This document shows, piece by piece, positions 7,535 to 37,500 of a DNA stretch of 64,000 nt. The notes beneath the pieces were generated by a model. The model saw only the letters and a list, made by a program, of their open reading frames with translations, was not told the origin of the DNA and made no database searches. The stretch comes from a virus, in the IMG/VR virus record IMGVR_UViG_3300033512_000452, positions 1-64,000 of that record; one strand, written 5' to 3'. How positions within the stretch are numbered: the first letter of the stretch is position 1; each line of letters starts with the position of its first letter. Made by a program: the position numbers and the translations under genes.

Positions 7535-7538
7535 GTAA

Positions 7539-7610
7539 GCCAGGCTAGTTTAGTTGGGAAAACAACAGTCCTGTAAATTGTGGTCGCCGGTTCGAGTCCG
7601 GCGCTTGGCT
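7539..7610 (+). tRNA. tRNA, anticodon TGT (Thr) with unusual C at position 33
   Basis: Manual fold. Acceptor GCCAGGC/GCTTGGC (one G-U pair); D-arm GTTT-AGTTGGGA-AAAC; anticodon arm ACAGT-CCTGTAA-ATTGT; T-arm GCCGG-TTCGAGT-CCGGC; discriminator T. No encoded CCA. Confidence 0.65.
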
Positions 7611-7627
7611 TTTAAAAAGAGGGAAAT

Positions 7628-16719: not shown

Positions 16720-17361
16720 ATGAACTGGAATGAATTCCTGGCGCACGTTCGGATTGATTTACAAGATGACAGCACAACGCCCCGATGGAGCGACAAGCTG
16801 CTCTGGATGTATACCTGTGACGCTATTCGTGATTACTCTGGGTGGTTTTCTAAACGTATCGACAGCGTTCCTCTTGTGGAAGTAGATGGGAGTTACAGAC
16901 TGCCCTCCGATTTTGTCGATGAAATTGCTGTTGAGAATCCGTTGGGTGTCTATTTAAAACGTCGCCAGGAGTTTCCAGGATTTAGATTGCTCCAGAGGAG
17001 CAAAACGTACCATATTGAAGGGGAAAGAATATCTCTCGATTACCCTTCTGATGGTCAGGTTTACTTGACCTACTATGCCGTACACGACCTTCCTGTGTCT
17101 GAGGAAGATGTAAATTTTGTTTTTACCGTCCCGATGAGGGACATGGAATTATTGCGGATTTATGTGAAAGCCCGCGTTCACGAACAAATGAGAGGGAAAA
17201 CGGCGCGACTAGACCGGTTTAAATCCGGTTCTGGTAATCGCGATGACAATCCTTTGACTCCCGAGTTTAAGGATTTAATGTTGGAATACCAAGAGAAACT
17301 AGCAGAGAGATGTGCCGGTAGAACGGTTAGTCTTTATAGGGTGGGACGTTATGGCAATTAA
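16720..17361 (+). CDS. head-tail connector/adaptor candidate
   Basis: Position after the capsid gene; 213 aa. Confidence 0.45.
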   Translation: MNWNEFLAHVRIDLQDDSTTPRWSDKLLWMYTCDAIRDYSGWFSKRIDSVPLVEVDGSYRLPSDFVDEIAVENPLGVYLKRRQEFPGFRLLQRSKTYHIEGERISLDYPSDGQVYLTYYAVHDLPVSEEDVNFVFTVPMRDMELLRIYVKARVHEQMRGKTARLDRFKSGSGNRDDNPLTPEFKDLMLEYQEKLAERCAGRTVSLYRVGRYGN

Positions 17362-20961: not shown

Positions 20962-22374
20962 ATGACTGCTGCTGAAGGATCATTCCTCGGTATTGCGAAA
21001 CAGAGCGCATTCAAAACACCTGTCACTACAGATGCGGATTTTACGTATCTTTTGTTCCGGCAGGGTTCTATTGCTGCGAATAATATTATTTTACCGCTCG
21101 ACCCCGAAGTCGGCGGAGGCGCGCTTAATCCGCGTGCTGTTGTTAAGGCTGGCGTCAACTCTGGCGGTATGTTGGATATCGTTTTCCGCCCTGAAACACT
21201 CGGTTGGTTCCTGCTTGGAATGACCGGGTCTGTAACATCGAAAGCGAACCATGCCCCAGAAGGTGTTGTTGCATACGACGATACGACTCCAATTTTGTCG
21301 TCAAGCGGCACCGACGACGTAACATTGTCTGGCGAAGTTCAGCTTTTCGTATACGCCAACGCTGCTGCAACGTTTTCTGATGCGACGCCAAATGTCGTTA
21401 CCGTTACTGGAAAGGACGCTGCGGTCGCCACTGTCACTGAGACTTTCACGCTTGATACAACGTCCACTGGAACAGACCAGGATGGCATTCGGTATTGGGT
21501 TGGCGATGCTGGTGTCTCCAAGAAATTCAAGGTTATCGAGGAGATCACCTTCACTGAAGGTCCGATCTCCGGATCTGGCGGAAAAATCGCCGTTGGGTTT
21601 AAAGACGGATCTTATTCCCACGTGTTCAAACTCGGGTCTGATCATTTCGACGCGCCCTACTACACTCTGCGCTATGCGCCGGGAAACATGTGGGGCGAGC
21701 AGTTTCAGGACTGCCGTGTGTCTGCTTTGGCGATTAACTTCGCTGGCGCTCGGTTCGTCGATGGCGCACTTCAATTTGTTGGTCGAACGCCGAGTCGCAT
21801 TTCCACAACAGGTTGGGATGCAATCAACCACCTTGATGTTGGTCCTCAGTTCTTGGCTTCTACGCCTGACTGCGCAATGGAGCTTCCGCTCGGGGACAGC
21901 GCCGCTGTTCTTTCTGGGTCTTTTGTGGCATCTTCGCAGATCCCCCTGGACGAGCAGTTTGTGGTTGGTTCTTACGAACCCGAAGGTGTTGATATCGTAT
22001 CGCGGTCGTTCGCTGTACAGATGAATATCAAAGTGACCGACGCCGACCTGTACGCAAAAATGCAGTACGACGCCGAAGGCGGTAACGCTTGGGTTGCCAA
22101 TATTTACAAAGAAGGCAACTTTAAACTCAAACTCGCATCCGGCGAGGAAGCGGCTCTGGTGAAAAAGGCAAATACGTATGGACGTAAGTATCACATTCAG
22201 ATCGCCGGTAACGGTCAGTCTAATGAGAATGCAAACGTATCCTGGACAGCGCAACCTATCGCTCTGCGCGCAGGTCGCCAGATCGTTATGCAGGTAAGCG
22301 GGACGTTCCACCCGGCGCCTGGGTTCGATCCGATCTCGATCACATTGGTCAATCGGGTAGAATCTTACGCCTAG
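20962..22374 (+). CDS. major tail protein candidate
   Basis: 470 aa, directly upstream of the chaperone/frameshift/tape-measure arrangement. Confidence 0.6.
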   Translation: MTAAEGSFLGIAKQSAFKTPVTTDADFTYLLFRQGSIAANNIILPLDPEVGGGALNPRAVVKAGVNSGGMLDIVFRPETLGWFLLGMTGSVTSKANHAPEGVVAYDDTTPILSSSGTDDVTLSGEVQLFVYANAAATFSDATPNVVTVTGKDAAVATVTETFTLDTTSTGTDQDGIRYWVGDAGVSKKFKVIEEITFTEGPISGSGGKIAVGFKDGSYSHVFKLGSDHFDAPYYTLRYAPGNMWGEQFQDCRVSALAINFAGARFVDGALQFVGRTPSRISTTGWDAINHLDVGPQFLASTPDCAMELPLGDSAAVLSGSFVASSQIPLDEQFVVGSYEPEGVDIVSRSFAVQMNIKVTDADLYAKMQYDAEGGNAWVANIYKEGNFKLKLASGEEAALVKKANTYGRKYHIQIAGNGQSNENANVSWTAQPIALRAGRQIVMQVSGTFHPAPGFDPISITLVNRVESYA

Positions 22375-22436: not shown

Positions 22437-22877
22437 ATGGTAAAAAGTGAAATCGAAAAAACAGAGGATAAAAGTAAACTAAACGGAAAGATGGCGTTTG
22501 GTAAATACGCAATTCTTTCGTCGGTTACTTATCAACTCAAAAAAGAGCCTGATTGGTATTGGGTAATCAAACCTTTGACAGTTGATACAGACATTAGAAT
22601 CCAGCAGTTGCTGATTGCGAATCAGCGATTTGTTACGGGCGCGGATGGCGATCCTATTCGGGTGCCTGCTGCGGAGTTGGAAGTTGGCGTGTATCAGGTC
22701 GCGGCAACTTTCGAAGAAACGAACATTCCAGATCCGGAAAATCCAGAAAAACCAATCATTGAAAAAGGAGCGAGTATGACTTCTGCTATCGCGAAGTTAA
22801 AAACTTTCCCCTACGAACTCTTAATGGAGCTCTGGAATGCTGTTATTGAGGCAAACCCTCCTTCGGATCTGGAATAA
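22437..22877 (+). CDS. tail assembly chaperone (G-like)
   Basis: 146 aa, immediately before the tape-measure-position ORF. An open -1 frame follows its end. Confidence 0.7.
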   Translation: MVKSEIEKTEDKSKLNGKMAFGKYAILSSVTYQLKKEPDWYWVIKPLTVDTDIRIQQLLIANQRFVTGADGDPIRVPAAELEVGVYQVAATFEETNIPDPENPEKPIIEKGASMTSAIAKLKTFPYELLMELWNAVIEANPPSDLE

Positions 22878-23107
22878 TTAGTGACCTGAACGAGCTCGAG
22901 GATTATGTACGAGATTACTGCCTTGAGGAAAAAGCAGATGACATGATCTTAAATATGTACATCGGGTTAGCGAGTAAAGAAAGAAACGGCCATCATTTGT
23001 TTTCGCCCCTTGAAGAACCGTGGTTCTGGGCAAACTTTGTCAAAACATGGATACAAATGGGGATCGATGAGCGAGATCGCATGAAGGTCGGTGCGTTAAA
23101 GATATAA
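22437..23107 (+). CDS. chaperone -1 frameshift extension product (GT-like)
   Basis: The -1 frame is open from 22850 to the TAA at 23105-23107. It encodes ...SDLNELEDYVRDYCLEEKADDMILNMYIGLASKERNGHHLFSPLEEPWFWANFVKTWIQMGIDERDRMKVGALKI. Confidence 0.6.
22853..22859 (+). promoter_or_regulatory. candidate slippery heptamer A_AAC_CCT
   Basis: The only X_XXY_YYZ-type site inside the 22850-22877 overlap window. Codons are GCA AAC CCT in the zero frame. Confidence 0.45.
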
Positions 23108-23130
23108 AAAGGTCGCGCGACTGGCCTCCA

Positions 23131-23163
23131 AGCCCCCAGGTTTTCCTCTACCTGGGGGCTTTT
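23131..23163 (+). terminator. strong hairpin with short T-tract upstream of the giant ORF
   Basis: AGCCCCCAGG-10 nt-CCTGGGGGCT followed by TTT. Confidence 0.5.
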
Positions 23164-23176
23164 CGAAGGAGAATGT

Positions 23177-26100
23177 ATGAGTAAAGCAACAAGGGCTATT
23201 TTAAGAAGATACGAAGAACGCAAAAACCTTGCCGGATTACGTCCGAACGCTAAAGGGTACGAAATGCCAAACATCGAAAGCGACGATGACTTTGAGCAAT
23301 ACAACCTAGAGCAACGAGCGAAAGAGTTTTGGTCTAGTCTTCACCCTGAGTTATCTTCTCCTATCCCTTTAACAAATCCAGCGGCTGGATATGAAGATAT
23401 TCGAACCTTATACGCAAACCTTCCGCCAGCGCAGCCTACAACAAGAATGTCAACCAAAGAGGATTGGAATGCAAGTCTTTTATCCAGCGCCAGCAGAGAT
23501 CTTGATGAATACGAGGTTATGTCTGGTTTTAGCCAACCTAAGAGAAAACCTCAAACTCCTACGCCGTTAGGTTTGCCTACATCTAGATCCTTTAGGTCTA
23601 TGATGGCATCGACGATAGCCAAAGAGATAACAATTCAACCTACTGAGTCTGAAAATGCCTTAATTTACGCAAGAGAAAATCCGACAGTTAACACGTTAAT
23701 GCGGGCTTACGATCCATCTCTAGCAAGAAATACAGTTAATCTTGGTCAATATGATTCAAGAAGCAATGAAACTATCTTCGAAATGAGCAACAGGCAACGA
23801 GCGCGAGAAACGAAAGGCGGATCATCTTTCGTAATTAACACGCTTGGTGTTGCATTTAACCGGCAGGTACATTCATCTCTTAAGAATCAACTTGGATTCG
23901 TTCCATTAATGGAAAATCTTACTCTTGCGCAAGAAAAAGATATCATGCTGATTCCAGGATACTCGCCGGAAGTTGACGAAATCAGGAATTCCGACTCCTT
24001 TAAGCAAGCTATGTTAGAAAGAGGGGGATCAGAGAGAGAAGCTCTCCTTGAAGCTATCGGCGGGTTGAATGTTCCTTTTGTGAAATTATCCCCAGACGCT
24101 AAACCTACCAGATATCAACGCGGAGGGAAAGATAACAACAAATTCCTTCCTACTGAAACTGGCGGGTATGTGTTTGATTCCAGCACAGATAGATTTGTTC
24201 CATATAATCCTAAGAACGCGTACTCATTAAGCGACGATATGCTTGAGAAGATCAAGGGCGTGCTTGGTGGAACACACGTTGATTTTATGCGCAAAGAACA
24301 GCGCGACGCTATGACAGGAATTGTTCGCGACACAAGAAACGCCGCGCCTGAAGTTGATTTCTCAACAATTGCTATTGAATACTTCCAGGGAATGCTTCAA
24401 TATGCCGTTGGTAATGTTGATAAAAGAATTGAGATTGAAACAAAAAAGGCTGGTGGAGCCTTGCATAACCCGGATGGCTTAAGGGACAATATTAAAACTC
24501 AGATTGCAAGGATGTTTTCTGCTTCTACTGAAATTTATAATTTCTTTAACGCCCAATATGCCCACGGTGTAGACCCCGACGCGAATAAAGAACCGGATCA
24601 CGAATCTGCTAAAAGATCCCTTAGTGACTTCAATAACGCATATGCTCTTGCTGCATATCCAAAAATGAAAGACACTAGCTTCTTGTCTTTTTCTGATATC
24701 TCTACGTTTTTTAATTTAGGAAAGACAGTCCCTTCCGTCAATGAAAATGGTAATGTATTTCTAAAAAATAAAAGAAAAAAAATAGAGATAAAAAACGAGT
24801 TAGTAGAGGTCAACAACTTCCCGAGAAATCTTCAAGTAACTCAAACAGTATCGAGGTCAATGTTGTCTTTCGGGACACTTACTGGCGCACACTTGGAGCT
24901 TGACGGGCGAGATTCAATAGAGACGATGCAGGCCGCTGATGCTGATGTCTTTGAAAGTTTGATCGCATTTAAGGGTGGGTACAAACAAGATAATTTGTTC
25001 GCGTATCTATTCGGTAAAGTTATATTCAATACATTTAAAAAGACAGATCAAAAGCAAAGTCAAGCGCTCGCACAGTATACCCTCGCTAATAGTAATCCTC
25101 AATTCGGGGAGAGAGTTGCTCTTCAAAACTCTGCCGTAACCGATTACGACAAAAGAAGATATCAAATCGGAAGTTTTATGAAAAGACTGGGCGTGCAGAG
25201 CATTCCAGTTCCAGGCTTCTTTTCGAAAAACGGAGAGCTAAATGATGGTCAAGGCTTAATTAACCTTGATGATATTCGCGTTACAGACCCCAAAAAGGTT
25301 AAAGAGTATTGGCGTCAAAAACTTATTAACCAAGAGAACGCCAGACACGAATCAAGTATGGCGGCTTATAAATCTGCGTATACAACTGAAACCAACTTTA
25401 ACGCAGAAGAAAGAATATCCAAACTTAGAGAGCAACAAGAAATTGTAGATCAATATGCTTTTCGCAGAATCGATATAGACGATGTTTTTGAAACTTACGC
25501 GGATTTTGACCGTCGGATAAAGGAAACAAAAAACTTACCAATGCCGATAGGTAATCGGGTAAATAATCTCTCTGTGCTTTCAGAGATCCACGCAAAAAAC
25601 ATATCAGAAATCGATAAATTTAAAGCCGCTAATGCCGCTAAAAAATTTGGTTATTTTTATGATTACAAAAGAGTCCCAGAAGGTTACGCCCCTTTAGTTC
25701 TCAATAGTGACGATTCTGGGATTGTCCGAGATATGGTATTGCCAAATCCAGGACTAAAACAAGGGGACTACCCTGCATCAATCAAGAAAATGATGAATGC
25801 CATCGTAATGATGTACTCTGCTGAAGGCATTGGGGTAATGGGAGAGACAAAACAAGAAGCAGATATGTCTGAATTGGGTGATGCTCTTGATCGCAGTGAG
25901 ATGGTTGTGTTTGGCGGTCGCTTGATTAATAGAGTTTCCATGGACAAAGAGTTCCCTGGTGGTGCATCGGAGTTGTGGGGCGTTAATTCAAATGAAACAG
26001 AAGAGGATTCTGATTTCGCTAATACAGCGCCTGGGTACAGCAAGGATGGGACATCGGAATTTAATACAGCATTGTCTCGTGAGAGAAGTGCGTTAATTCT

Positions 26101-29100
26101 TATGGCTAAAGATGCCGCAAAACGTCTTGGTAAATCAGTGAAAATAACAAAAGATACAACCATTGAGAAATTACGAGAGATTGTTTACAGCGAATCTAAT
26201 TGGATGAAGACGATGGTCGACGACGCGATAACAAATGGCGGAAAAGGTGGTTTTAATCCATACAATTTTGATCCTAGTTATAAAACAGCCAGCATAGCGA
26301 TAAGTAAAGCGACAAGATTAAACACTAGCACTATGGAACGCGTTGGCGATGGATGGAAGGTTCCGGCGCAACCAATTAATGCTTTATTGGCCGCTGTTGA
26401 CAATGCGTTCTCGAGATTTACTAGAAATAGTCCGGTTTCCGGCGCCGGAAATAATCCCTTGACTGTTCCAGAAAAACAAGGTCCAGTAAAAGCTAATGTA
26501 CCTTACACGTTGAAAGGTCAGACTGGCGAGAGATTACCTACACCTGATGAACTCAATGAATTAGGCGTTGATTTAGAGGAGTACAAAAAAATAATGAATA
26601 AAAAAGGCGGATCCGGTGCTTATATACATCTTGAGGCGAGGATAGGTGAATCTCTTAATAATCAGAGCGATCGAATGGAATCTATTCGATATGGTTTAAG
26701 TAAAATTGGCGTACCAATAGGTCGCAAAAAAGCAGAGGCTCCAGAAAATCGCCCAGCACTTCCTGCTGGAAACTTTGCCAGTAACGTGTGGGGAAGATTT
26801 AGAGCAGAGGCTCCAGAGAAATATGGACCAGAGAGCGAGGTTTTGGCTCCCTACTTCAGCGAGATGAATGGTATTTCAAGAAAAGAGTTAGATAATCGTG
26901 CAATGACGGCATCTAAGATTATTCAAGATCGCCGGTCTGGACTTGAAAATCCGATAACTTCTTACGGTAATATCTTGGATGATTATCTTGACAATTATTA
27001 CGGTCGAGGGATAGAAAACAAAGAGGCTTTTGAGACTTGGGTTAGTGATCGTGGAAGTTCAGATCCTGTTGAGTTTGGTAAATTTATGTCTCAAGTCTTT
27101 GTGCCCCTTATTGGACAGCATACGTATATCAAACAAAGCAACCGCGGGGAATACGATCATGCCGGAACTGTTTACAATGAATTAAGTCGTATCATCCCCA
27201 AAGCGTCAGAGATGCTCCCGAAGATGTCAGAGGTACTCGCTGCAGGGGAGCCCAACGATGTTGTTGGCGATCAAACGAATGTCTCAAGTACCTTGAATGA
27301 CGTTCTTTACCCTCGATATTCAGATAAAATTAATGGAATTTTATCAAGGGTAAACGATTCTATATCATCTGGGCGCAACTTCCTTTTGGGCAGCCCTCCA
27401 GGATCGCAGAAGACTTCTGCCATTTATCAGGCTGTAAGTGCACGCCCGGGGTTGGGGATTATTACTACGCCGTTGAGCAGCTTGAGTCGTGGGCACGAAT
27501 CAAGATTTAGAAAAGGCTTGGCCGAAAACGGTATTTACGACGTCCCTAGCACTTTCTTTTTAGGTGGGCATCCCGGGGAATTTGATCCTGACAGAATGGA
27601 CCAGGCAGAGTACGACAAAGACGTTGCTGAGTACAATAATTCGCATTACGAATTCCTAAGAGCCGTAATGGAGAAATCAGGCGTGGATGCGGTCTTTCGC
27701 GGTGTTGACGAGTCTGGCGAGTATACGACACGAAAATACTCTATTGATGAAGCAAGAGGGCCTAATTTTAGGAATTTCATTGGACGAGGAACTCATCCAT
27801 GGAGCGCTTTTGTCGATTTATATGGAACGCCGAAATTCAAAAGAAGTGTCATTAATGAGAATACGTCGGAAGACAATCGTGTTGTTGCGATTATGTCGCC
27901 GGAAAAGCTCTCTCATCTACAGGGAGAGAATGGCGAAAATCCAAGTAAACTTGGCAGGATAATAAACTATTTAAAGAATGAAGACCAGATTGGAGCAATT
28001 GCGATTGATGAGGTCCAGAAGGGATTTACAGACGCAAACGTTTCCAGGCCTGATTTACTTGATCAAATCAGAGTTGCGAGAGATGAATATCCTCGCGTTC
28101 CAGTGATGATGGCAGGTGGTTCGTTGGATCCTGATGATGTTGACATGATCAAAGATTTCTTCTCCGAGCAAGGGATTGATTCCCATTACGAAAGAACGAA
28201 CATGAGTAAATATATTGACCCTGATGTTATTCTTGCAAAAAGAGATCAGTGGGGGAAGATTGCAGCCGAAAGAATGAATCAAGATCCAAATTTGCTTACA
28301 TACGTTGATTCAACATCAAGGGCAAACGAGATTTACGGTATTGTTTCAGCAGGTGGTCAAGACGCTCATATCCAGCACAAAGGAACTGGTGACAAAAGAT
28401 TTCCTGGCGCGGTTTCAAGGGAAATGAACGAGGATGTCTCTAGGCATATCTCAGACAGAACCAACATGCCGAGAACAGTCGCAACCGGCGCAATGGGGGA
28501 AGGTATTGATATGCCTTGGGTTAAAAACACCCAACTTATTGGTATCCCGAATAATACTGACGAAATAATGCAAAGAGCTATGCGAGCACGCGAATCGAAT
28601 ATGGGCCCAGGAGAACGTTCTACTGTAACAATGATCACAGACCTCGATGAAATCCAAAAACGAGCAAATGGAATCAAGGAAACGGCAGCGAGTGTTACTC
28701 CAAATTCGATTCTTGCCGCTTTCAGAAGAGTTCAGGGTTTCTTGACCAATGGTGACGCTTCTCCGAATTGGAAGATAAGCGGAAAGCAAATAGAAGACGT
28801 AATCGGTGATACGCTTTATGCTTCGACAAATAATCACACGTCTCGTCTTCACGCTGGAATGGTTAAAGGAATCATGGCAACATCTGGTCTTCTCGCTATG
28901 GATGGCGATGATGGGTTTAATTACACAATTCACAATGATGTCTCTGAATTGAGTGACGACGATATCAAAAAGAAATTAAACGATGGCGTATACAAAGACC
29001 CAGAGACACTCGTTGATAACCCATTAACTATGCAGGAGTATGTCAATAAGTCAGCGAACTACAGAAAAACATTAATGATGAGTGCTTATCATAGTATCCG

Positions 29101-32100
29101 CCACCAACATATTCGCCAAAGTTTAGCAAAAATTACAGCAGAGGCGCCAGACAATAAGCCAAACTTTATGGTTCCTGGCCAAGAAAACCTATTCTTGAAA
29201 ATTAAAACAGAAAACGGAATGGAATATCAGAAAGCAACTGGCGGTAGTGGCCCTGATTTTTCAGAGATCAGCGAGTTAGATATTGTCACAGCTCAACAAC
29301 GCGGAGAGATTGTTGGTACGATCCATGATCATATTTCTGCTCATGGTCGATCTGGTTTTTCGAGTTCTGATAAAGAATTATCCGCTCTTGGGAGCGTTGA
29401 AGTTGTCGAGTCAACAGGTTTGAAGAGATTTGAAGCTAACGCTAAAGGAGACAATTTCGTCAGCGATAGTTCTCCTAGTTTTGACCTCAAAGCAATAGAA
29501 AGTGCATTTGCCAAAGTTGTTAAATCCTTGAATAACTTTGGTGGGCGCATGGAAGAAATAAACGAAGCCATGGCTGATGGTACATCTAGCCTTAGCAAAA
29601 ACATGGTTGCGTTTAATTCTGTGATAAAAGATTTAACACCAGACGAAAGATCTGGCGTGTCAAATATCGCAAAACAACAGCAAGGGCTTTATTCGGCGGC
29701 GGGAAATGATCTCCTGGCTGGTTTCGTTGCCCAAAAATTAGATCCTTTATATCAACCACGCTCTAATTCCCAATCATTTGACTTCTATCAACCTTCTACC
29801 GGAAAAACATTTGATCCCATTCAAGCAGCGAGAGCTGCGCAAGCGGAGCAAAGAAGTGCTTTAGTTGAATCTAGTAGGAAGGACTTCTTCGCCAGAAGTG
29901 GTGTTTCCTCAAACGAAATCGCCAAAAGATATGGTGTTAGTAAAGAAACGCTCGTAGGCAGAATGAGGCAGGACGCTTTTCGTGGTTTTTCTGATACAGA
30001 TGGTTCCCCGAGAGGCGTTGGAGAAAGAGCCAAAATTGACGGAGTTTCAGTATCTGAGCAGATTGGAAATATCCTTATTGAGAGAGAAGAAGGCAGAAAG
30101 AAAACACTGTCAATCTATGGGAGTGATATATCTCGCGGCACAGTCAATAAAGCTCTCGCAAAAAGAGGTATGCTTTTTGATGAAGCAAGTATCGGCGATG
30201 TAAATGACATTATTTCCGAAAGCGAAGCTCAAAATGCGACATCCGTTGAACGCAAAAGATCTATTCGCAGATTTGAGATATCTACTGGCGGACAATCTTC
30301 TAAGGCGCTTACTCATTTCTCTGGTGGAATGACAGATACTGAAATATCAGAAATGCCTGAGCAGGAGTATCAACAGTTAACCGAAAGAGTTACGGAAACA
30401 ATAGAGTCAGTCAGGGGTCGCGTTGAAGGAATTAAGCAACTTGGCAACATGGCCGGAAAAGTCCTCAAACAGGCAGCCGATATCCAAGGAAGAGATTTAT
30501 TATCTAGAGATGAAGACACATTAGTTACGCGCGGAAAACAAGGATTATCTCCTGTAAGTGATGACGAGTTATCCGGGATGATAGGGAGAGCCAATTCTTG
30601 GGAGGATATGTTCTCGGGTCTTGCTGGCGGTAGGTACGGAAGAAAGCTAGGCATATTTAGAGGGAAGCAAATTAATGAACGTAAAGCCAACCGCTCATTA
30701 AGTGAACTGATTGGGTCAGATGAGATCGATGAAGATATCTTTTCAATGGATCCTGATGAGTTAGTTGATCGTCCTGGTATGTTTGGTGGATTAAAAGACA
30801 GACTTCGCGGAAGGCAAACGAGAAAGGATCACGTTGCTGAACAGATTCACGAACAACAGGATATCCAGGATAATCAATCTGTTTTCAAACGACCAATGAT
30901 CCAAGCAGCATTCGCTGGATACATTGTCGGTAACGCCTTTTCTCAAATAGCTGGCAGCTCTCTTCAAAATGCTTATCAATATACAGCGCAGAATCCATAT
31001 ATGCAATCTTCTGGGTTCTCACCGTTCTCAGGGACTGGTTCTGGGTTTGCTTTACGCCAAAAAGTAAACGAAGAGGAGTTGGGCAAGAGTTTCCAGGAAT
31101 CTCACGGTATATCTATGAGCTTGGGGTATATGAATCTTGGATTCGGGAAAGCTTTACAGAGCGCTCAATACGGAGTTGGGATCATGGCCGCAGGCGTATC
31201 TGCGGCGGAGTCTGTTTCAAGTATTGCATTTCAGCAGTCCATGATGGGCACAACCCCTAAAGCAATGAAGGCGTTAGGTAAAGCTGCTGGGATTGGTGGG
31301 GCAATTGCCGCTACAGTCGGTACACTTACTTCAGTTTTTGATGTCGCAAACGAGCCATTAGCTGATTATATTTTTGACAAAGAGAAACTTGGCGAAAGAA
31401 GCTACACAATTGGAACAGGACCAGATTCCTTCATTGCTAATAACGCGTTATTGGATACGTTGTCAAAAGAAACAAAACTTGATTTTTGGGATGATCCTAT
31501 AACGCGAATCGGTACGAATATCAATTCTTTTATCCCTGGTATGGGTACCGCTGTATTTGAAGCCAACAAACAATACGCAAATTCATTAGGATTATCTAAC
31601 GAAGAAATCCTCAAAGCGATGCCTAAGAGAGTCGCTGACGTATTAGCTCCGCTTGTTGAGTCGGAAGAACACAAAAAAGCGTCTGATTTAAACGATCGGG
31701 CTATTGAAAATCTCCAGAGAGCAGGTCTTGGCGTTACTAGAGAGCAGGCTTCGCCAATAACCGACGGCGCTATGGACGTTTTTGGTAACAACGCCTCTGT
31801 CACCTACTCTGAAATAATGGGTGACTACTATGAGCAATATGGAATCAAAGCAAGCGTAACCGATTCTATGTTAAAAAACACAGCGACCGCAAGTGGTTAC
31901 AGAAGAGACAGCAGGGAGATGTATGACTTGTTGGCGGATTTCTCTTCTGCTGGTTCAGAGAGTGGAGCTTATAACACCTTCGAGAGAAAGAGTCAGACGT
32001 TTTCTGCGACAGCTAATACGACTGGATTAATTTCTGCTTTAAATCCAGGAATCGACACGAGTGTTGATAGGGCACGTGTGCATGATTGGTATGAATCGTC

Positions 32101-33970
32101 TACATCAAACGCTATTACAAAAAGCACAGTCATGGACCTATACAACCAAGTGGCGCCGACAGTTAAAGGCTACGGTCAAAATACTGGAATTGATTTGCTA
32201 AGCCTGATGGATAAAGCTTTCGCTGGATACAACGAAGACACTGTGAATTTAATGAGTCAGTCCATCCAGGGGGATGTTAATGCTCAGTCATGGCTTGCGA
32301 ATACAAACCCAGAAGCGCTGAAGGCTGCTGGCGGCGATCCGGATTCAATGCGTTGGTTTGATACAAAAGGAGATAATTTATTCCAATCAAACCCGATTGA
32401 AGCTTCACGTCAATTCTTAAATCTGTCCAGAACTAACACCGCTGGCGGAATCGAAGCTCGGAGACAAATTAGTAAATACGGGATTAGTCGCTCAGAATCT
32501 AACGCAATGTCTGGCTCTCAATTATTAACAAAGATGGGTGTGGACTCCGGCATTGTTAATACGTTAGAAAAAACTGGTTGGGGTTTTGAAGATCTTGGCA
32601 ATCCGAGTTTAACAAAAACAGTTGACGGTGTTACGTACAGCACGCCAGCTTACAATATAAATAAACTTCAAGATCAATCTTTTGGGCTTCAATATGCTGG
32701 CGTTGCAGCTCAGCAAGAATACAACGCGGCATCTCGTCCGATTCAAGATGAAATAAATAGGATACAACATAAATCACAACTGAGGTCATTCAAGCAACAA
32801 AGGTCTAATATCGAAACCAATAGATCTTTTGAGTTACAACAAAACGCAATATCATATGACCGCATGACAACGGGTCACGAGTACCAGCGTTGGCAGACCG
32901 AGTTTAACCGAGAGGCTCAATTACAAGAAAGGGGTTGGACCAGGGAAGATTGGGGTTATCAGGATTGGCAGAGTGGTTTCCAGCGCGAGACAAGTTTGCT
33001 TCAGCGCGATTGGAGTAGATCTGATAATAAATACTCAGCGACACAACGCGCATCCTCTCGCTCTCTTGATTTAAGCCAAAGACAGTGGGCCGTTGAAGAT
33101 CAACAATTTAACCGCCAAGTATCCGGTTTGCAGTTTAGTTGGTCAATGGAAGATTTCGATGAAAATATTAGATTCTCATCTGGCAGGGAAAGGAAAAATT
33201 TAATCAAGCAGCGTGACCGCGCTGTAACCACCCAGAACCTCGAAGAAGGTCAGACTGAAAAACAAAACTCTCGTCAAGCTAAAGTGTGGGCGAAACAAGA
33301 TGAAATGTGGACGAAAGAGTCTGATCATATTTCGGAGATCAATAAAAGACAAGAAGATCTTTGGGCACGCGAAGATGAAATGTGGACGAAAGAGAAATCC
33401 CACATTGAAACTATTCGCAATCGGCAGGAAGAGGTCTGGAAAAAAGAAGATAAGCAATATACCAAACAAAAAGAGTATTCCGAAAAACTTATGGCTCTCG
33501 ATTTGTTGCAGTACAACTTAACAGTTGCTCAGCAAACAGCATCTTACAATATGCAAAAAGAAAATCTTATAAATCAAGAAAAAGATTATAAGAAGTTATA
33601 CAAACTCCAAAAGGACCAAATTGATCTGCAAAGGAGTTACGAAGACAAGCAGATTGCCCTCCAACTCGCAAGTATCGCCAACTCTCAAGCACAGTTAGCT
33701 GAGCAAAGAAAAATGACTGTTGGAATTAAGGATTTCGGCCAAGCCGCAAGTGCCGCTTTGGACGCTTCAACCTTGAGGGCTAAAATGGCACCGTTGGCAA
33801 CTGCCATTGAATACATAAGCAATATGGTGGATAACATAAACAATCTTGATACGAATAAAACAAATGCACTTGAGTGGACTATTGATACGTTGGATGGTCT
33901 TGACACTTACAGACTTCAACAACTTCGTAATTTTATTTACGATATCAACAACTCAAACCCACCGGACTAA
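23177..33970 (+). CDS. giant 3597-aa tail protein: tape-measure-like C-terminal third fused to a long N-terminal region with an SF2 helicase-like core (polyvalent-protein type)
   Basis: Uninterrupted ORF in the tape-measure position. The C-terminal part has hydrophobic Gly/Ala-rich segments (GVGIMAAGVSAAE, AAGIGGAIAATVGTL) and periodic Trp repeats (RWQTEF, EDWGYQDWQ, RDWSRSD, KVWAKQDEMWTKE, DLWAREDEMWTKE, EVWKKED). Confidence 0.8.
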   Translation: MSKATRAILRRYEERKNLAGLRPNAKGYEMPNIESDDDFEQYNLEQRAKEFWSSLHPELSSPIPLTNPAAGYEDIRTLYANLPPAQPTTRMSTKEDWNASLLSSASRDLDEYEVMSGFSQPKRKPQTPTPLGLPTSRSFRSMMASTIAKEITIQPTESENALIYARENPTVNTLMRAYDPSLARNTVNLGQYDSRSNETIFEMSNRQRARETKGGSSFVINTLGVAFNRQVHSSLKNQLGFVPLMENLTLAQEKDIMLIPGYSPEVDEIRNSDSFKQAMLERGGSEREALLEAIGGLNVPFVKLSPDAKPTRYQRGGKDNNKFLPTETGGYVFDSSTDRFVPYNPKNAYSLSDDMLEKIKGVLGGTHVDFMRKEQRDAMTGIVRDTRNAAPEVDFSTIAIEYFQGMLQYAVGNVDKRIEIETKKAGGALHNPDGLRDNIKTQIARMFSASTEIYNFFNAQYAHGVDPDANKEPDHESAKRSLSDFNNAYALAAYPKMKDTSFLSFSDISTFFNLGKTVPSVNENGNVFLKNKRKKIEIKNELVEVNNFPRNLQVTQTVSRSMLSFGTLTGAHLELDGRDSIETMQAADADVFESLIAFKGGYKQDNLFAYLFGKVIFNTFKKTDQKQSQALAQYTLANSNPQFGERVALQNSAVTDYDKRRYQIGSFMKRLGVQSIPVPGFFSKNGELNDGQGLINLDDIRVTDPKKVKEYWRQKLINQENARHESSMAAYKSAYTTETNFNAEERISKLREQQEIVDQYAFRRIDIDDVFETYADFDRRIKETKNLPMPIGNRVNNLSVLSEIHAKNISEIDKFKAANAAKKFGYFYDYKRVPEGYAPLVLNSDDSGIVRDMVLPNPGLKQGDYPASIKKMMNAIVMMYSAEGIGVMGETKQEADMSELGDALDRSEMVVFGGRLINRVSMDKEFPGGASELWGVNSNETEEDSDFANTAPGYSKDGTSEFNTALSRERSALILMAKDAAKRLGKSVKITKDTTIEKLREIVYSESNWMKTMVDDAITNGGKGGFNPYNFDPSYKTASIAISKATRLNTSTMERVGDGWKVPAQPINALLAAVDNAFSRFTRNSPVSGAGNNPLTVPEKQGPVKANVPYTLKGQTGERLPTPDELNELGVDLEEYKKIMNKKGGSGAYIHLEARIGESLNNQSDRMESIRYGLSKIGVPIGRKKAEAPENRPALPAGNFASNVWGRFRAEAPEKYGPESEVLAPYFSEMNGISRKELDNRAMTASKIIQDRRSGLENPITSYGNILDDYLDNYYGRGIENKEAFETWVSDRGSSDPVEFGKFMSQVFVPLIGQHTYIKQSNRGEYDHAGTVYNELSRIIPKASEMLPKMSEVLAAGEPNDVVGDQTNVSSTLNDVLYPRYSDKINGILSRVNDSISSGRNFLLGSPPGSQKTSAIYQAVSARPGLGIITTPLSSLSRGHESRFRKGLAENGIYDVPSTFFLGGHPGEFDPDRMDQAEYDKDVAEYNNSHYEFLRAVMEKSGVDAVFRGVDESGEYTTRKYSIDEARGPNFRNFIGRGTHPWSAFVDLYGTPKFKRSVINENTSEDNRVVAIMSPEKLSHLQGENGENPSKLGRIINYLKNEDQIGAIAIDEVQKGFTDANVSRPDLLDQIRVARDEYPRVPVMMAGGSLDPDDVDMIKDFFSEQGIDSHYERTNMSKYIDPDVILAKRDQWGKIAAERMNQDPNLLTYVDSTSRANEIYGIVSAGGQDAHIQHKGTGDKRFPGAVSREMNEDVSRHISDRTNMPRTVATGAMGEGIDMPWVKNTQLIGIPNNTDEIMQRAMRARESNMGPGERSTVTMITDLDEIQKRANGIKETAASVTPNSILAAFRRVQGFLTNGDASPNWKISGKQIEDVIGDTLYASTNNHTSRLHAGMVKGIMATSGLLAMDGDDGFNYTIHNDVSELSDDDIKKKLNDGVYKDPETLVDNPLTMQEYVNKSANYRKTLMMSAYHSIRHQHIRQSLAKITAEAPDNKPNFMVPGQENLFLKIKTENGMEYQKATGGSGPDFSEISELDIVTAQQRGEIVGTIHDHISAHGRSGFSSSDKELSALGSVEVVESTGLKRFEANAKGDNFVSDSSPSFDLKAIESAFAKVVKSLNNFGGRMEEINEAMADGTSSLSKNMVAFNSVIKDLTPDERSGVSNIAKQQQGLYSAAGNDLLAGFVAQKLDPLYQPRSNSQSFDFYQPSTGKTFDPIQAARAAQAEQRSALVESSRKDFFARSGVSSNEIAKRYGVSKETLVGRMRQDAFRGFSDTDGSPRGVGERAKIDGVSVSEQIGNILIEREEGRKKTLSIYGSDISRGTVNKALAKRGMLFDEASIGDVNDIISESEAQNATSVERKRSIRRFEISTGGQSSKALTHFSGGMTDTEISEMPEQEYQQLTERVTETIESVRGRVEGIKQLGNMAGKVLKQAADIQGRDLLSRDEDTLVTRGKQGLSPVSDDELSGMIGRANSWEDMFSGLAGGRYGRKLGIFRGKQINERKANRSLSELIGSDEIDEDIFSMDPDELVDRPGMFGGLKDRLRGRQTRKDHVAEQIHEQQDIQDNQSVFKRPMIQAAFAGYIVGNAFSQIAGSSLQNAYQYTAQNPYMQSSGFSPFSGTGSGFALRQKVNEEELGKSFQESHGISMSLGYMNLGFGKALQSAQYGVGIMAAGVSAAESVSSIAFQQSMMGTTPKAMKALGKAAGIGGAIAATVGTLTSVFDVANEPLADYIFDKEKLGERSYTIGTGPDSFIANNALLDTLSKETKLDFWDDPITRIGTNINSFIPGMGTAVFEANKQYANSLGLSNEEILKAMPKRVADVLAPLVESEEHKKASDLNDRAIENLQRAGLGVTREQASPITDGAMDVFGNNASVTYSEIMGDYYEQYGIKASVTDSMLKNTATASGYRRDSREMYDLLADFSSAGSESGAYNTFERKSQTFSATANTTGLISALNPGIDTSVDRARVHDWYESSTSNAITKSTVMDLYNQVAPTVKGYGQNTGIDLLSLMDKAFAGYNEDTVNLMSQSIQGDVNAQSWLANTNPEALKAAGGDPDSMRWFDTKGDNLFQSNPIEASRQFLNLSRTNTAGGIEARRQISKYGISRSESNAMSGSQLLTKMGVDSGIVNTLEKTGWGFEDLGNPSLTKTVDGVTYSTPAYNINKLQDQSFGLQYAGVAAQQEYNAASRPIQDEINRIQHKSQLRSFKQQRSNIETNRSFELQQNAISYDRMTTGHEYQRWQTEFNREAQLQERGWTREDWGYQDWQSGFQRETSLLQRDWSRSDNKYSATQRASSRSLDLSQRQWAVEDQQFNRQVSGLQFSWSMEDFDENIRFSSGRERKNLIKQRDRAVTTQNLEEGQTEKQNSRQAKVWAKQDEMWTKESDHISEINKRQEDLWAREDEMWTKEKSHIETIRNRQEEVWKKEDKQYTKQKEYSEKLMALDLLQYNLTVAQQTASYNMQKENLINQEKDYKKLYKLQKDQIDLQRSYEDKQIALQLASIANSQAQLAEQRKMTVGIKDFGQAASAALDASTLRAKMAPLATAIEYISNMVDNINNLDTNKTNALEWTIDTLDGLDTYRLQQLRNFIYDINNSNPPD
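26436..26451. repeat. exact copy of the 16-bp palindrome
   Basis: Inside the giant ORF, read as SGAGN. Confidence 0.95.
27360..28610 (+). other. SF2 helicase/ATPase-like core inside the giant ORF
   Basis: Motif I-like LGSPPGSQKTS (about 27388), motif II AIDEVQ (about 28006), motif V-like TVATGAMGEGIDMP (about 28474), motif VI-like MQRAMRAR (about 28566). Gln replaces the usual Gly in motif I and the usual His in motif II. Confidence 0.6.
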
Positions 33971-34049
33971 ATCTAACGTTTTATTTTTTTGCAGAATTCG
34001 TTTTGCGTACTTACTTACGTGGAACAATTGCGTTACAATTGAGGTTAAC

Positions 34050-34505
34050 ATGAACAGTTATATTTCGCTTGATCACGGAGCTGGTTATATAGGAATGGAA
34101 GATGATAGTATTGTTTCTTTAGAAGATGAAACAATGCTTGTTTCGCAGGATTATTCTCTTGGCTTTTTTTCAACGCCAATGAAAAATTGGGATCCAATAA
34201 TTGTGCGCCCTGCGTCAGTTAAATACACACTCAATGGAGAAGCCTATTCTGTGTATGGGTATGGAAGCAATAAGGAATGGGATGGCTTTATTATTGCTGG
34301 TGTAGCTGAAACAGACGAGCTTTCAAGTGTGGACACTTTACGCGAATTACTTTCCGTTAATGATAATATTCGTTTTACTGACCATTACGGAAACGAGTAT
34401 ACCGTTGTTTCTATTGGGCCATTTCAAGAAAAGCATCTACTGTCTGATTGGGAAAATAAAAATAATCGCGTCTTTATCAAAACAAGACTTGTTGAGGTTA
34501 AATAA
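34050..34505 (+). CDS. distal tail protein candidate
   Basis: ATG at 34050 after GAGGT. 151 aa directly after the tape-measure-position ORF. Confidence 0.5.
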   Translation: MNSYISLDHGAGYIGMEDDSIVSLEDETMLVSQDYSLGFFSTPMKNWDPIIVRPASVKYTLNGEAYSVYGYGSNKEWDGFIIAGVAETDELSSVDTLRELLSVNDNIRFTDHYGNEYTVVSIGPFQEKHLLSDWENKNNRVFIKTRLVEVK

Positions 34506-37500
34506 TGAGGAACTCTTCGTATAAATTCAGTAAAAGTCAGAAGACGAAAAGCAAGATAACAATCGACGATCCACTTCTTCGGTTTTCTGGGTTTTCAATA
34601 AATGACTATGTCGTTTCAAATGACGGGTATTATGGATATGACTCGTCGAGTTTTGATGATACCTTATTGAGGATAGCTACGGTCAATTCTTGTACAACAA
34701 GGCAATTGTTTTATTCGTATTGCGACAATTTGCCAGGCTTGAGTCCGTGGGTAAATTCGGATATTACCGTTTCTTTTAATTCAATCCCTGGATTATTTGG
34801 GAATAGAATTTTCTGGCAAACAGCAGACGGGAAAGTTCACTCCGCAATTATCACAGAAAGTGGGATTACGGATCAGGTAGAGATTTTTACGCAATCTCAA
34901 GAATTAGCCATTGCCCCAATATCTGAAACGGAATTTTATGCGCAATACGTAACCGGCGTATCTAAGCGTGTTTTTTATTACAATACAGCGACAGACGTTA
35001 AACATGAATGGTGCGGTTCTCTTTTTGCGGAAAAACACAGTATTAAATCTTTCGACGCTGAGCGCGTAAATGATATTGATTATGTCTTCACGACAGACGC
35101 TAATGGAAACAGGGCTGTTTGTTTGGAAGTGGACGTTGCTGGTTTTTCTACACCTGAATGGGCTGAGCAGTATTACGTTATTCCAATCGACGTTGTTGAT
35201 GTCGACTCTTTTTTCAATCCGCATTTTGCGAGCGTTCTAAACGGTAACTTATTTCTAACTGGACATCTTGCTCGTCCAGCATCAAAAGGCATGTTGATTT
35301 ACACCAAGGGACCAACATGGTCCCTTGGAAAAGAAATGTTTATTGGCTTCCCTGCAAATACTTATCAAACAGGAAAGTTACATATAATTGGGGATGAGGT
35401 TTGGTATCTTGGTGTTGATTTGCTTTACAAAGCGACTGCTACGTCTTATGTTGGTGTAGATAAATCGTTTGAGATTGATGATTTTTATGATGTTAGAATA
35501 TCAAAATCAGCAAACACAGCGGATACGATTTCTCTTATTGTGAAAAACGCTGATAATATTCGCCCTGGAATGACGTTGAAGTTTGATGGAGTTATAAACG
35601 ACAAAGAGTACAATTACGGCATTTTTGACATAGACAGTATAAATAAGCAAACAAACAGAGATGGACAAGAAATTGTTTTATACGGAAGATCCTTTCCACA
35701 CAAACGGCTCTCGCAGTGGGTGAGTGACAGTAGCCTTGATTACTGGTCACAAACAAAACACAACGCTATGGCTACCGACATCTCTAAAAGCATTAGAAAA
35801 GCAGGTGAATGGGTAACATATGACTCTGGTACAGACAACGAAAATTTGCGCTTAAGATCTATTGGCGATTCAATTATGTATGTCTCAGCAAAATCAAGCA
35901 AAAATTCAACGATGGCTGCTAAATTCAAAAAGCTATCTACTACCGCGACTGATTACGATGGAGTCAGTTATGGTGTTGGTGTAAATTATTACGAAGAAAC
36001 TGTTCTTGACGCAGCGGAACGTCTCGATCGTGAAATTGAAGACGTAGACGAAGATGATCAAAAGTATTACGGGATACTTGCGCTTTGGGGCGTGAAAGAG
36101 CACAATGGATCTGAAGGGATTTCTGTCTATCTTGTAAAAAAAGATGCCCAAACATATATAACATCAGTAGCTTTAAGTGTACCAAATCAAACAGATCACT
36201 GGATTAGTATAAAATGGATCGACGGGCACATTTTCGTTTACTATCGGTTAGATAGCTCAGAAGAGTGGTTGTCTATAATTGATTATCTTTACGATTTAGA
36301 GGAATCGCCATATATAACAGACACAGATCAGTCAGGGCGAGGTTTTGTGTTCGGACGTGTGTCTGAACAATCTGTCTCGACTACATTGTTTCAAGACATT
36401 ACATTTGACGCATCTACAATCCCGGTTACATCACATCAAAACTTCCCAGATACAGGTACGATTAAGATTGATGACGAATCGATTCCTTACACATCCAAAG
36501 GAACACTAACGGAAACAACAACAAAGTACCTGAGCCCGGCGATTATTTACAGGCCAGACTTGGCTCCAACGACAACTCAATGGATTTGGAATAAAAGCGA
36601 TACTGCCAATGTCACTTATACAACACACCGTGTAACACCGGACTTAACAGCTAACAACAGTGTTCTTTATGGTGGAATAAATTACTATAAAACAAAAATC
36701 ACATACCCATTTGATTACTCTGGAAAAAATCTCAACGTATCTATCTATCTCTCTAAACTAAGCAACGTTGGTAGCAACTTACTATTTAGCGCTCAAGATG
36801 ATTCTGGAAACATATTAGCTAATGGGTCCGCGAAGTATGTAATAACAACAAGTATAATCTCTGCTATTCATCCGTCATACAGTTGGGTTAATTTTAAAAT
36901 CCCAGGGTTTACATCCGATAGTGCATGGTTTTCTGTCTCCAACACTGAAATAAGTATACCTTACGTTGCTGGTTCTCCAACTATATATTACTTTATTTCT
37001 ACCGTTAATTTATCAGGAAATGCGCCATACACTTATGGCGGACCTACGTACTATCGGTATTATGCCGACACCCCAGGCACGAATAGAGTATTATCAAATA
37101 CTGCTATCAATTTTAAGATAGAGCTTCCCACACCAGGCACTCAGTATTATCGTCTGTACCTAGGAAATGGCTATACTAGCGTTAATTATATGAATGATAA
37201 CTTAGTCGTAACGTCTGGGACTGGAATTGGTAGAGTTTTCACAAACGTTGGTTCTGGGTATAATTACGTCCTTGTTTTAGAGGATACATCAACAATTGAC
37301 AACACTTCCAGTTTGAAATTCTTTTCGCAAACAACTCGAAGTTTAAATGTTTTTTATGTTAATCGTCAAAGTAATTCGTCAATTCATTTAGCTGGGGCGA
37401 GCGTTTCTTTGGTAGAGAATTTAACTGTTGAATCTTGCCCATTCTCTGTAACGGACACCAGGTATTACTCAAGTGAAAAAGATATAACTGTATCAGATAT

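Follow-up and report, generated by a model that had tools for sequence, protein, structure and literature searches.

How a siphovirus genome passes through the host envelope, and what later role the ejected tape-measure protein (TMP) plays, is still poorly understood, and the locus analyzed here raises the question of what a giant protein in the tape-measure position might do when only a part of it resembles a tape measure. The gene lies at 23177..33970 on the plus strand of a 64,000-nucleotide (nt) stretch of viral DNA (positions 1 to 64,000 of the IMG/VR virus record IMGVR_UViG_3300033512_000452), hereafter called the window, and encodes 3597 amino acids (aa) in one open frame with an ATG start and no internal stop. 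A preliminary description of this DNA, made from the sequence alone, had proposed a tape-measure-like C-terminal third joined to sequence of some other function, and both parts of this proposal are borne out: about 1000 C-terminal aa are conserved with other giants in the tape-measure position, and the remainder contains a RecQ-like helicase module at aa 1265-2151. The reading we favor, with a probability of roughly 55%, is that of a TMP composed of a C-terminal chassis and a RecQ-like helicase, which is packaged, ejected and acts on the incoming DNA.

The continuity of this open reading frame (ORF), already pointed out in the preliminary description, is upheld by several independent measures. 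A stop-free run of 3597 random codons at the same base composition has a chance of about 1e-91, and scoring of the codons against the other structural genes of the phage gave a positive frame 0 in all twelve 300-codon segments, with frames 1 and 2 negative all along, so that no gene-joining seam is present. A ribosome-binding site (GAAGGAG, 23165..23171, plus strand), read from the sequence, stands 5 nt before the ATG. The protein contains no cysteine at all, as compared to 34 expected from the other proteins of the window; both this absence and the helicase motifs described below had been missed before. No internal repeats were found by self-BLAST. The gene is also distant from what has been deposited: megablast and tblastn searches with the entire gene, with the C-terminal third and with the helicase part gave no match among 50,697 deposited phage genomes, phmmer with the whole protein gave none in PDB, and PHROGs, NCBIfam and segment-wise Pfam searches yielded only a sub-threshold Helicase_C.

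The enzymatic identity of the middle part rests on profile and fold comparisons. The conserved module (aa 1265-2151; 26969..29629, plus strand), a RecQ-like superfamily 2 (SF2) core with its flanks, aligns by BLASTP with aa 1029-1864 of the giant protein P0004 (E = 7e-28), and an exhaustive phmmer search with aa 1001-2000 against 1.84 billion representatives found it only in the two giants P0003 and P0004 and in a single free-standing protein, P0005, which is a bona fide RecQ (TIGR00614, 389 bits). Motifs I, Ia, Ib, II, III, V and VI of the giants' cores align with those of P0005. A profile built from the three giants only, and thus free of any RecQ sequence, matched in PDB the E. coli RecQ 1OYW (4.4e-13), 4TMU over both lobes (9e-12), D. 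radiodurans RecQ (4e-10), BLM (4e-6) and RECQ1 (1e-3), and Pfam DEAD exceeds its gathering cutoff of 26 in P0003 and P0004 (28.4 and 37.1 bits, respectively). All top Foldseek matches of an AlphaFold2 (AF2) model of aa 1265-2151 belong to the RecQ family (BLM at 2e-13, DrRecQ, RECQL5, RECQ1 and WRN; range 1e-13 to 1e-8). Profile and Foldseek matches alike place the two RecA-like lobes at aa 1385-1830 (27329..28666, plus strand). Motif I (Walker A) has the non-canonical form G-S-P-P-G-S-Q-K-T (aa 1405; 27389..27415, plus strand), where the relatives have PPGSGKT or PPGWGKT; motif II (Walker B) is DEVQ (aa 1611; 28007..28018, plus strand), with DEAQ or DESQ in the relatives and the D, E and Q invariant; and motif VI, QRAMRAR (aa 1799; 28571..28591, plus strand), follows a family pattern Q-x3-R-x-R, of which the Q and both R never vary among the four members that bear a helicase, and coincides with a faint Pfam Helicase_C match at aa 1766-1804. 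An insertion of about 95 aa (aa ~1466-1560; 27572..27856, plus strand), present only in the 3597-aa protein and modeled with a low predicted local distance difference test (pLDDT) score, interrupts lobe 1 between motifs Ia and Ib. The content of Gly and Pro in the module, 12-15%, is globular-like, as opposed to 2-6% beyond aa 3150, in the coiled-coil C-terminus. We thus assign aa 1265-2151, with high confidence, to a divergent RecQ-like SF2 helicase module.

This module is not a canonical RecQ, since its scores fall far below the family cutoffs, the protein offers no cysteines for a zinc site, and HRDC and RQC are missing. Against TIGR01389 (the RecQ equivalog, cutoff 640.2) the 3597-aa protein, P0003 and P0004 score 12.1, 28.2 and 47.5 bits, and against the family model TIGR00614 (cutoff 219.8) P0003 and P0004 score 20.3 and 44.9 bits, with no reported match for the 3597-aa protein. 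No RQC or HRDC domain was found by Pfam in the giant protein, and the four-cysteine zinc-binding subdomain of RecQ is impossible in a protein without cysteine. Side by side with the RecQ helicases of known structure (1OYW, C. sakazakii 4TMU, BLM, RECQ1 and RECQL5), which give the best profile and fold matches, the module shares the two RecA-like lobes and co-linear motifs but differs in having DE[AVS]Q instead of DEAH, a Q-x3-R-x-R motif VI and no zinc site, RQC or HRDC, as well as in being embedded in a structural protein.

The same arrangement of helicase plus chassis recurs in independent JGI and Logan (public sequencing-run) assemblies, namely in P0003 (on three contigs), in P0004 and in a fourth helicase-bearing TMP, L034, a 5'-truncated ORF recognized by its hidden Markov model (HMM) score (E = 8e-75). 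Across these four lineages the motifs PPG-x-GKT, [ST]PEK, DE-x-Q, GG[ST] and Q-x3-R-x-R are conserved, and the Walker A motif is canonical in three of them, the exception being the 3597-aa protein. We infer from this conservation that the fusion of a helicase to a tape measure is real and under selection. Two contigs with an identical 2919-aa helicase-bearing giant gene, L002 and L003, differ in what follows its stop codon (L002:18760-28760 compared with L003:18778-23081): tail genes on L002 and bacterial-looking genes (MscS_porin, PLDc, PAP2 and DUF1214) on L003. L003 may thus be chimeric or what is left of a truncated prophage.

The C-terminal chassis defines a larger family of giants. Large-scale protein searches gave the relatives P0002 (3180 aa), P0003 (2919 aa), P0004 (2954 aa) and P0006 (2631 aa); word-indexed searches with the whole protein, a four-giant alignment and the C-terminal profile contributed no others than P0002, P0006 and P0007, the last being a fragment. 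Two blocks are shared. The hydrophobic, Gly/Ala-rich segment at aa 2576-2725 (30902..31351, plus strand), homologous to P0002, P0003 and P0004 and with hydropathy peaks at aa 2667-2724, comprises putative membrane-inserting helices and corresponds to the Gly/Ala-rich helices previously placed at about 30890 to 31330. The Trp/Gln-rich coiled-coil block at aa 3165-3597 (32669..33967, plus strand; E = 2e-27 to 8e-31 vs. the same three proteins) includes the periodic tryptophans previously seen at about 32870 to 33470: twelve of them fall between aa 3239 and 3421 (nt 32891-33441), with a repeated 7/18-residue spacing. Within this block lies the family signature WSMEDFDENIRFSSGRERKNLIKQRDR (aa 3322-3348; 33140..33220, plus strand), with the pattern W-x-MED-x2-E-x-IR-x3-GR-x-R-x2-L-x3-R-x-R (in short, W-MED-ENIRF-GRER) and invariant W, E, D, E, I, R, G, R, R, L, R and R alignment columns, of which W, E, D, R, G and R are invariant also across 16 further giants. 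Between the helicase module and the hydrophobic segment, a charged linker (aa 2152-2575; 29630..30901, plus strand) gives only sub-threshold Pfam noise and is not conserved with the relatives.

A profile of the C-terminal block retrieved 12 loci from IMG/VR, 23 from metagenomes and three from metagenome-assembled genomes (MAGs); related-locus searches with the whole giant protein, the tube protein and the helicase profile found none in IMG/VR, and neither did the helicase profile in metagenomes. Complete family members are 1351-3643 aa long (11 of the 12 IMG/VR genes encode more than 2200 aa), complete giants have 0-2 cysteines each, and the helicase-free members span 2279-3643 aa, equaling or exceeding the 3597-aa protein at the upper end; the longest, at L042:1022-11953 (plus strand), encodes 3643 aa and has neither a cysteine nor a Pfam domain. 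Between the hydrophobic segment and the C-terminus lie about 710-930 aa in 15 of the 20 distinct proteins for which this distance was measured (930 in the 3597-aa protein), while the part upstream of this segment varies from about 1380 to about 2670 aa in those 15 members, and the N-terminal regions are not alignable between lineages. The anatomy of the family is thus a C-terminal chassis of fixed length, about 1000 aa, and a lineage-variable N-terminal region, about 2550 aa here. The three MAG loci (L018, L019 and L020, on contigs of GTDB genomes) come from uncultured Chloroflexota, Anaerolinea and Chloroflexia; as the only genome matches to the chassis they provide a host-phylum lead for the clade, subject to the usual caveats of MAG binning.

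The position of the gene, which the preliminary description had read as that of a tape measure, is confirmed by its neighbors. The order in the window is large terminase (TerL), SPP1-type portal, major head protein and, after further genes, the tail tube, a 146-aa ORF, the giant gene, a 219-aa ORF and a 1511-aa ORF. The tube protein (470 aa; 20962..22374, plus strand) matches Pfam Phage_tube_2 with 28.6 bits at a cutoff of 27 and occupies the same place in the relatives. The 146-aa ORF (22437..22877, plus strand) has no family match; we take it for a G-like tail assembly chaperone by its position between the tube and giant genes and by its frameshift geometry. A -1 slippery heptamer of the type X_XXY_YYZ, A_AAC_CCT in the zero frame (22853..22859, plus strand), lies six codons before the G stop and 3 nt inside the -1 frame that opens at 22850, and this frame continues as a T-like portion, about 83 aa long, of a G/GT fusion (22850..23107, plus strand; stop at 23105-23107). 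Beyond the G stop the -1 frame runs for a further 230 nt and the +1 frame for only 4 nt. The same geometry, with slippery heptamers of their own, precedes the giant genes in L002, L001 and L005. Downstream, the 219-aa ORF (delimited by a first-start rule) and the 1511-aa ORF (together 33846..39040, plus strand) have no family or PDB matches and are assigned to the tail tip by synteny only, being in register with the genes of about 125 aa and about 1200-1550 aa that follow the giant in L001, L002, L004 and L005. The giant gene occupies the same syntenic slot in five relatives, where the order is portal, capsid, SU10-type adaptor, a protein of about 180 aa, a tube of about 350-460 aa, a chaperone of about 135-227 aa, the giant, and proteins of about 125 and about 1200-1550 aa. 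Taken together, the slot after the G/GT pair, the hydrophobic Gly-rich segments and the periodic Trp in a helical region make it very likely that the 3597-aa protein is the TMP of a novel temperate siphovirus.

Enzymes within TMPs are already known, both as cell-wall hydrolases and as the polymerase of the Thermus phage P23-45; full-text literature searches brought up no description of a helicase- or RecQ-bearing tape measure. The closest parallel is P23-45 gp96, a 5002-aa TMP whose N-terminal ~1200 aa are an experimentally proven virion RNA polymerase (RNAP) with the catalytic motif D779-F-D-G-D783 (Chaban et al., Nat Commun 2024, PMC10770324); virions contain this polymerase within the full-size, unprocessed TMP, and it has been proposed to act on entering DNA at the TMP pore (PMC10770324). 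In both cases a giant TMP in the canonical slot bears a nucleic-acid enzyme N-terminal to the hydrophobic segments, and gp96, too, has no cysteine in its 5002 aa; moreover, its R741-x-P743...D779FDGD783 is co-linear with an RxP...GDxDxD arrangement of most helicase-free relatives of the present protein. The differences are equally clear. Here the enzyme is a RecQ-like SF2 helicase instead of a two-barrel RNAP, there is no DxDxD, the helicase sits mid-protein behind 1264 aa, and no metallopeptidase domain was found in the 3597-aa protein. BLASTP between the two proteins gave nothing below E = 0.1, no homology was detected between the gp96 C-terminus and the family chassis, and the tube, capsid and 1511-aa proteins had no informative matches in PDB, so that no kinship with the structural proteins of P74-26/P23-45 is demonstrable. 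The giant is probably a second example, after P23-45, of a TMP that carries a DNA-handling enzyme into the host.

Two further comparisons bear on this point. The preliminary description had matched the protein to the concept of polyvalent proteins, a class whose helicases are of the SWI2/SNF2 clade and occur together with an adenine methylase as their partner, and whose hubs include metallopeptidase, ArdC-N, ParB, ART and PBECR (Iyer et al. 2017, PMC5512222); tape measures are not mentioned in that work (the word 'tape' occurs 0 times; PMC5512222). Membership in this class did not hold up, as the 3597-aa protein has a single recognizable enzymatic domain, the RecQ-like one, and none of the methyltransferase-SWI2/SNF2 dyad, metallopeptidase, ArdC-N, ParB, ART, PBECR or a MuF or portal anchor was found in it. 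What does stand as a reasonable functional analogy is the delivery of an enzyme together with DNA: like P1 DarB, for instance, this is a giant encoded among phage virion genes, with an SF2 helicase-like module and plausible delivery with the DNA, and in both systems enzymatic modules appear interchangeable on a delivery scaffold, the difference being that the scaffold here is a tail TMP instead of a protein with MuF or portal head anchors. TMPs with embedded cell-wall hydrolases, such as the Rpf motif of mycobacteriophage TM4 (PMC1796659), T5 pb2 and the enterococcal and staphylococcal TMP lysins (PMC10194240), likewise hold an enzymatic domain within the TMP that is deployed on ejection, but act on peptidoglycan outside the cytoplasm, whereas the module described here is a nucleoside triphosphate-dependent nucleic-acid enzyme and, because it needs ATP and DNA, would have to reach the cytoplasmic side.

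The region in front of the helicase (aa 1-1264; 23177..26968, plus strand) is lineage-specific. It has no match in Pfam, PHROGs, NCBIfam or PDB and no BLAST similarity to any relative; its MAFFT alignment is unconvincing, comparison with the DxDxD region of the relatives by HMM and hhalign was negative, and a single-sequence AF2 model has a mean pLDDT of 34.6. DxDxD is absent anywhere in the 3597-aa protein. The stretch IDIDDVFETYADFDRR (aa 766-780; nt ~25472-25516) resembles the RNAP motif (N)ADFDGD and is near the residue numbers of the gp96 DFDGD (779-783). This nearest motif, YADFDRR at aa 774-780, lacks the third Asp and an upstream R-x-P; the resemblance is statistically weak and post hoc, and the stretch could be a chance occurrence or a relic of a lost polymerase.

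Twelve of the 16 helicase-free giants have an invariant [G]DxDxD at aa 727-1182 (L005, i.e., P0006, 886; L042, 1182; L010, 821; L013, 864; L015, 899; L016, 1041; L017, 992; L028, 862; L030, 852; L032, 865; L033, 727; L038, 804), with an invariant R-x-P about 50 aa upstream. The cellular beta-prime subunit shows the same spacing, RAPTLHR ... NADFDGD. In an hhalign comparison of gp96(1-1300) with the profile of the relatives a single alignment was obtained, weak by its scores (E = 0.01, probability 4%), which sets R-x-P on R741-N-P743 and GDxDxD on D779FDGD783; the same profile had no match in PDB. We regard a tape-measure-fused polymerase in the helicase-free relatives as a strong lead and not as a result, and the motif pattern suggests that TMP-fused polymerases may be widespread in uncultured phages well beyond the Thermus phages. 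One relative, at L017:3443-10768 (plus strand), combines its GDFDKD motif at aa 992 with an RNase_T/DEDDh 3'-5' exonuclease at aa 81-214 (Pfam 5.8e-23; motifs DVETTG, HNVGFD and HEAMAD).

The course of events envisaged under the favored reading is as follows. The chassis would do the classical work of a TMP: it would nucleate the tail tip, take on a coat of G/GT chaperones and template polymerization of the tube, and after ejection would insert into the membrane and form a conduit for DNA. By analogy with gp96, the whole cysteine-free polypeptide would be built into the tail, metastable or unfolded in the lumen of the tube, and would leave the tail before the DNA does. In this way the helicase module could reach the cytoplasmic mouth of the TMP channel, at the leading end of the genome. 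There it would most likely bind the entering DNA and, if still active, translocate on it, an action that could aid in drawing the genome in and/or in protecting or remodeling its end vs. host nucleases and defense proteins. Delivery of the helicase and its action on incoming DNA, taken as a separate claim modeled on gp96, we put at slightly under even odds. A broader generalization would see in this widespread family a modular injection vehicle, whose chassis builds the tail and the channel and whose swappable N-terminal enzymes (RNAP-like DxDxD, DEDD exonuclease, RecQ-like helicase) are delivered at DNA entry, the helicase serving as an ATP-driven motor or guard in place of the transcription-coupled entry proposed for P23-45; this we offer only tentatively, at about one chance in three.

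A number of observations weigh against the favored reading. None of the TMP family models in Pfam, NCBIfam and PHROGs matches the 3597-aa protein, whose family is either too divergent for them or still without a model. The AF2 model of the module is of moderate confidence (mean pLDDT 48, with 50-84 in the core, where the beta-alpha pattern is seen), and its input alignment included a RecQ, although the result of the RecQ-free profile is independent of it. The helicase-bearing form is rare, with four lineages and none in IMG/VR; among the remaining ~35 family genes none has the module, and IMG/VR holds no further example. In the P-loop, the Gly before Lys is replaced by Gln, whose codon CAG is separated from every Gly codon by at least two substitutions, and the DEVQ form of motif II and the ~95-aa insertion in lobe 1 are further departures. 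Because of these three features the helicase of the 3597-aa protein may be catalytically dead, an ATPase-dead DNA binder. Furthermore, that the N-terminal 2550 aa are present in the virion and are ejected is an expectation drawn from gp96, and a folded two-lobe helicase would be too wide, as a trimer, for a tube lumen of about 4 nm, which makes it necessary to assume that it is unfolded or metastable. A rival reading is that the whole chain is simply a ruler for a very long tail, which at 1.5 A per residue would measure about 0.5 um (more precisely, ~540 nm for the full chain and ~140-150 nm for the chassis alone), the helicase being an inactivated relic that supplies length or a DNA-binding surface. 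The GSQKT of Walker A in place of GSGKT and the lineage-specific insertion agree with such a relic, giant size is independent of the helicase (helicase-free relatives of 2279-3643 aa), and in the phages P23-45/P74-26 a TMP of 5002 aa is accompanied by a tail almost 1 um long. The preliminary description had dismissed a full-length ruler as implying an implausibly long tail and had concluded that much of the protein is probably cargo or is processed; this argument is not supported, as helicase-free relatives are just as long and the 5002-aa gp96 remains full-size in virions of P23-45, whose sister phage P74-26 has a tail almost 1 um in length, and length alone is thus no proof of cargo or processing. 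Still, motif I keeps its K-T and motif VI both of its Arg, and D-E-x-Q and motif V are likewise retained, which at 21-26% identity is more than would be expected of a neutral relic; the P-loop is canonical in three of the four lineages, and the module has the Gly+Pro content of a globular domain and not that of the coiled-coil C-terminus. Overall, we consider a pure ruler rather unlikely, at odds of about one in four.

Less probable still, and in our estimate quite improbable, is a processed polyprotein, in which the N-terminal region and the helicase would be cleaved off during assembly, either to act in the producing cell or to be discarded, and the ~1000-aa chassis would be the mature TMP. 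A fixed chassis next to a variable N-terminus is what one would expect if only the chassis were constrained in length, and proteolytic trimming is known for lambda gpH; yet no protease domain or recognizable cleavage module was found in the protein, the sole studied precedent keeps its enzyme in the virion within a full-size TMP, and cysteine is avoided over all 3597 aa and not over the chassis alone, which indicates that the N-terminal part shares the constraints of the chassis. That the protein is no tape measure at all, but another giant virion or ejection protein situated within the tail module (cf. the virion polymerase polyproteins of N4 or crAss-type phages, or P1 DarB), could be argued from the lack of matching TMP models and from the fact that most of the chain is unlike a coiled coil. 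We judge it very improbable, given that in every relative the gene stands directly after the G/GT pair and directly before the synteny-placed tail-tip genes, that the tail module of the window has no other candidate TMP gene, and that hydrophobic segments and periodic Trp repeats are typical of TMPs. Finally, a mis-assembly or sequencing frameshift might have joined a helicase and other genes to a normal TMP gene, a possibility in favor of which there is only the fact of a single metagenomic contig without close relatives, and which the preliminary description had asked to be checked. Since helicase, hydrophobic segment and C-terminal block follow in the same order in three other independent assemblies, and since the coding signal is seamless (with the open-frame chance of 1e-91 and the absence of cysteine throughout pointing the same way), a joining error is effectively excluded.

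If the reading of a helicase-bearing TMP is true, its meaning extends beyond this phage. In the literature searched, P23-45 gp96 is the only described TMP with a nucleic-acid enzyme, and a second, unrelated enzyme class on a TMP would turn a single curiosity into a general principle, namely that the TMP places enzymes at the site and moment of DNA entry; the sister lineages with polymerase-like or exonuclease modules on the same chassis would belong to that principle as well. Helicase-driven DNA import, and TMP cargo as a route for anti-defense functions, would become testable, and for such phages the length of the TMP would not be directly convertible to the length of the tail. The highly specific W-MED-ENIRF-GRER signature and the near-zero cysteine rule can serve as search aids for more members.

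Expression of the giant gene may be regulated. The strong hairpin that had been noticed at 23131-23163 is real: a GC-rich structure with a 12-bp stem (23130-23141 / 23150-23161), an 8-nt loop and the ending TTTTCG occupies 23130..23165 (plus strand), with a folding free energy of -30.3 kcal/mol (z = -3.5 vs. shuffles). A classical intrinsic terminator was considered and rejected, as the T-run is short and a strict terminator scan did not list the hairpin at 23130; since this T-run criterion failed, we call it terminator- or attenuator-like only. Stem-loops at the equivalent position upstream of the giants (L002:9942-9990, 17 bp with a U-tract, a textbook terminator; L004:9953-9990, 14 bp; L001:4041-4073, 10 bp) show that position is kept, and sequence is not, in four of five loci, which suggests regulated read-through into the tape-measure gene. 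In the window, the hairpin would then be a terminator-like attenuator that lowers expression of the tape measure relative to the tube and the chaperone.

In its minus-strand half, the window has genes for a DnaB-type helicase, a DnaG-type primase zinc-ribbon protein, a tyrosine integrase, an AAA_24 ATPase, a PD-(D/E)XK nuclease and a Bro-N protein, and from this gene set the phage is regarded as temperate and equipped with its own replicative helicase. The RecQ-like module was considered for this replicative function and rejected, a separate DnaB-type helicase and a primase being encoded. The AAA_24 ATPase (608 aa; 39782-41608, minus strand) has a LAGLIDADG_3 domain in the middle (aa 243-292), which looks like an intein or a homing-endonuclease insertion in a recombination/replication ATPase. 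A 619-aa ORF at 17312-19171 (plus strand), between the genes of the major head protein and of the head-tail connector, has a short match to a tail-fiber PHROG at aa 166-240; this would be an odd place for a fiber, and the ORF may instead encode a capsid decoration or Ig-like protein. A tRNA-Thr (TGT) gene lies at 7538-7611 (plus strand) and the tyrosine integrase at 51386-52516 (minus strand). Gene orientation switches at about 39-40 kb, which is also the turning point of the cumulative GC skew.

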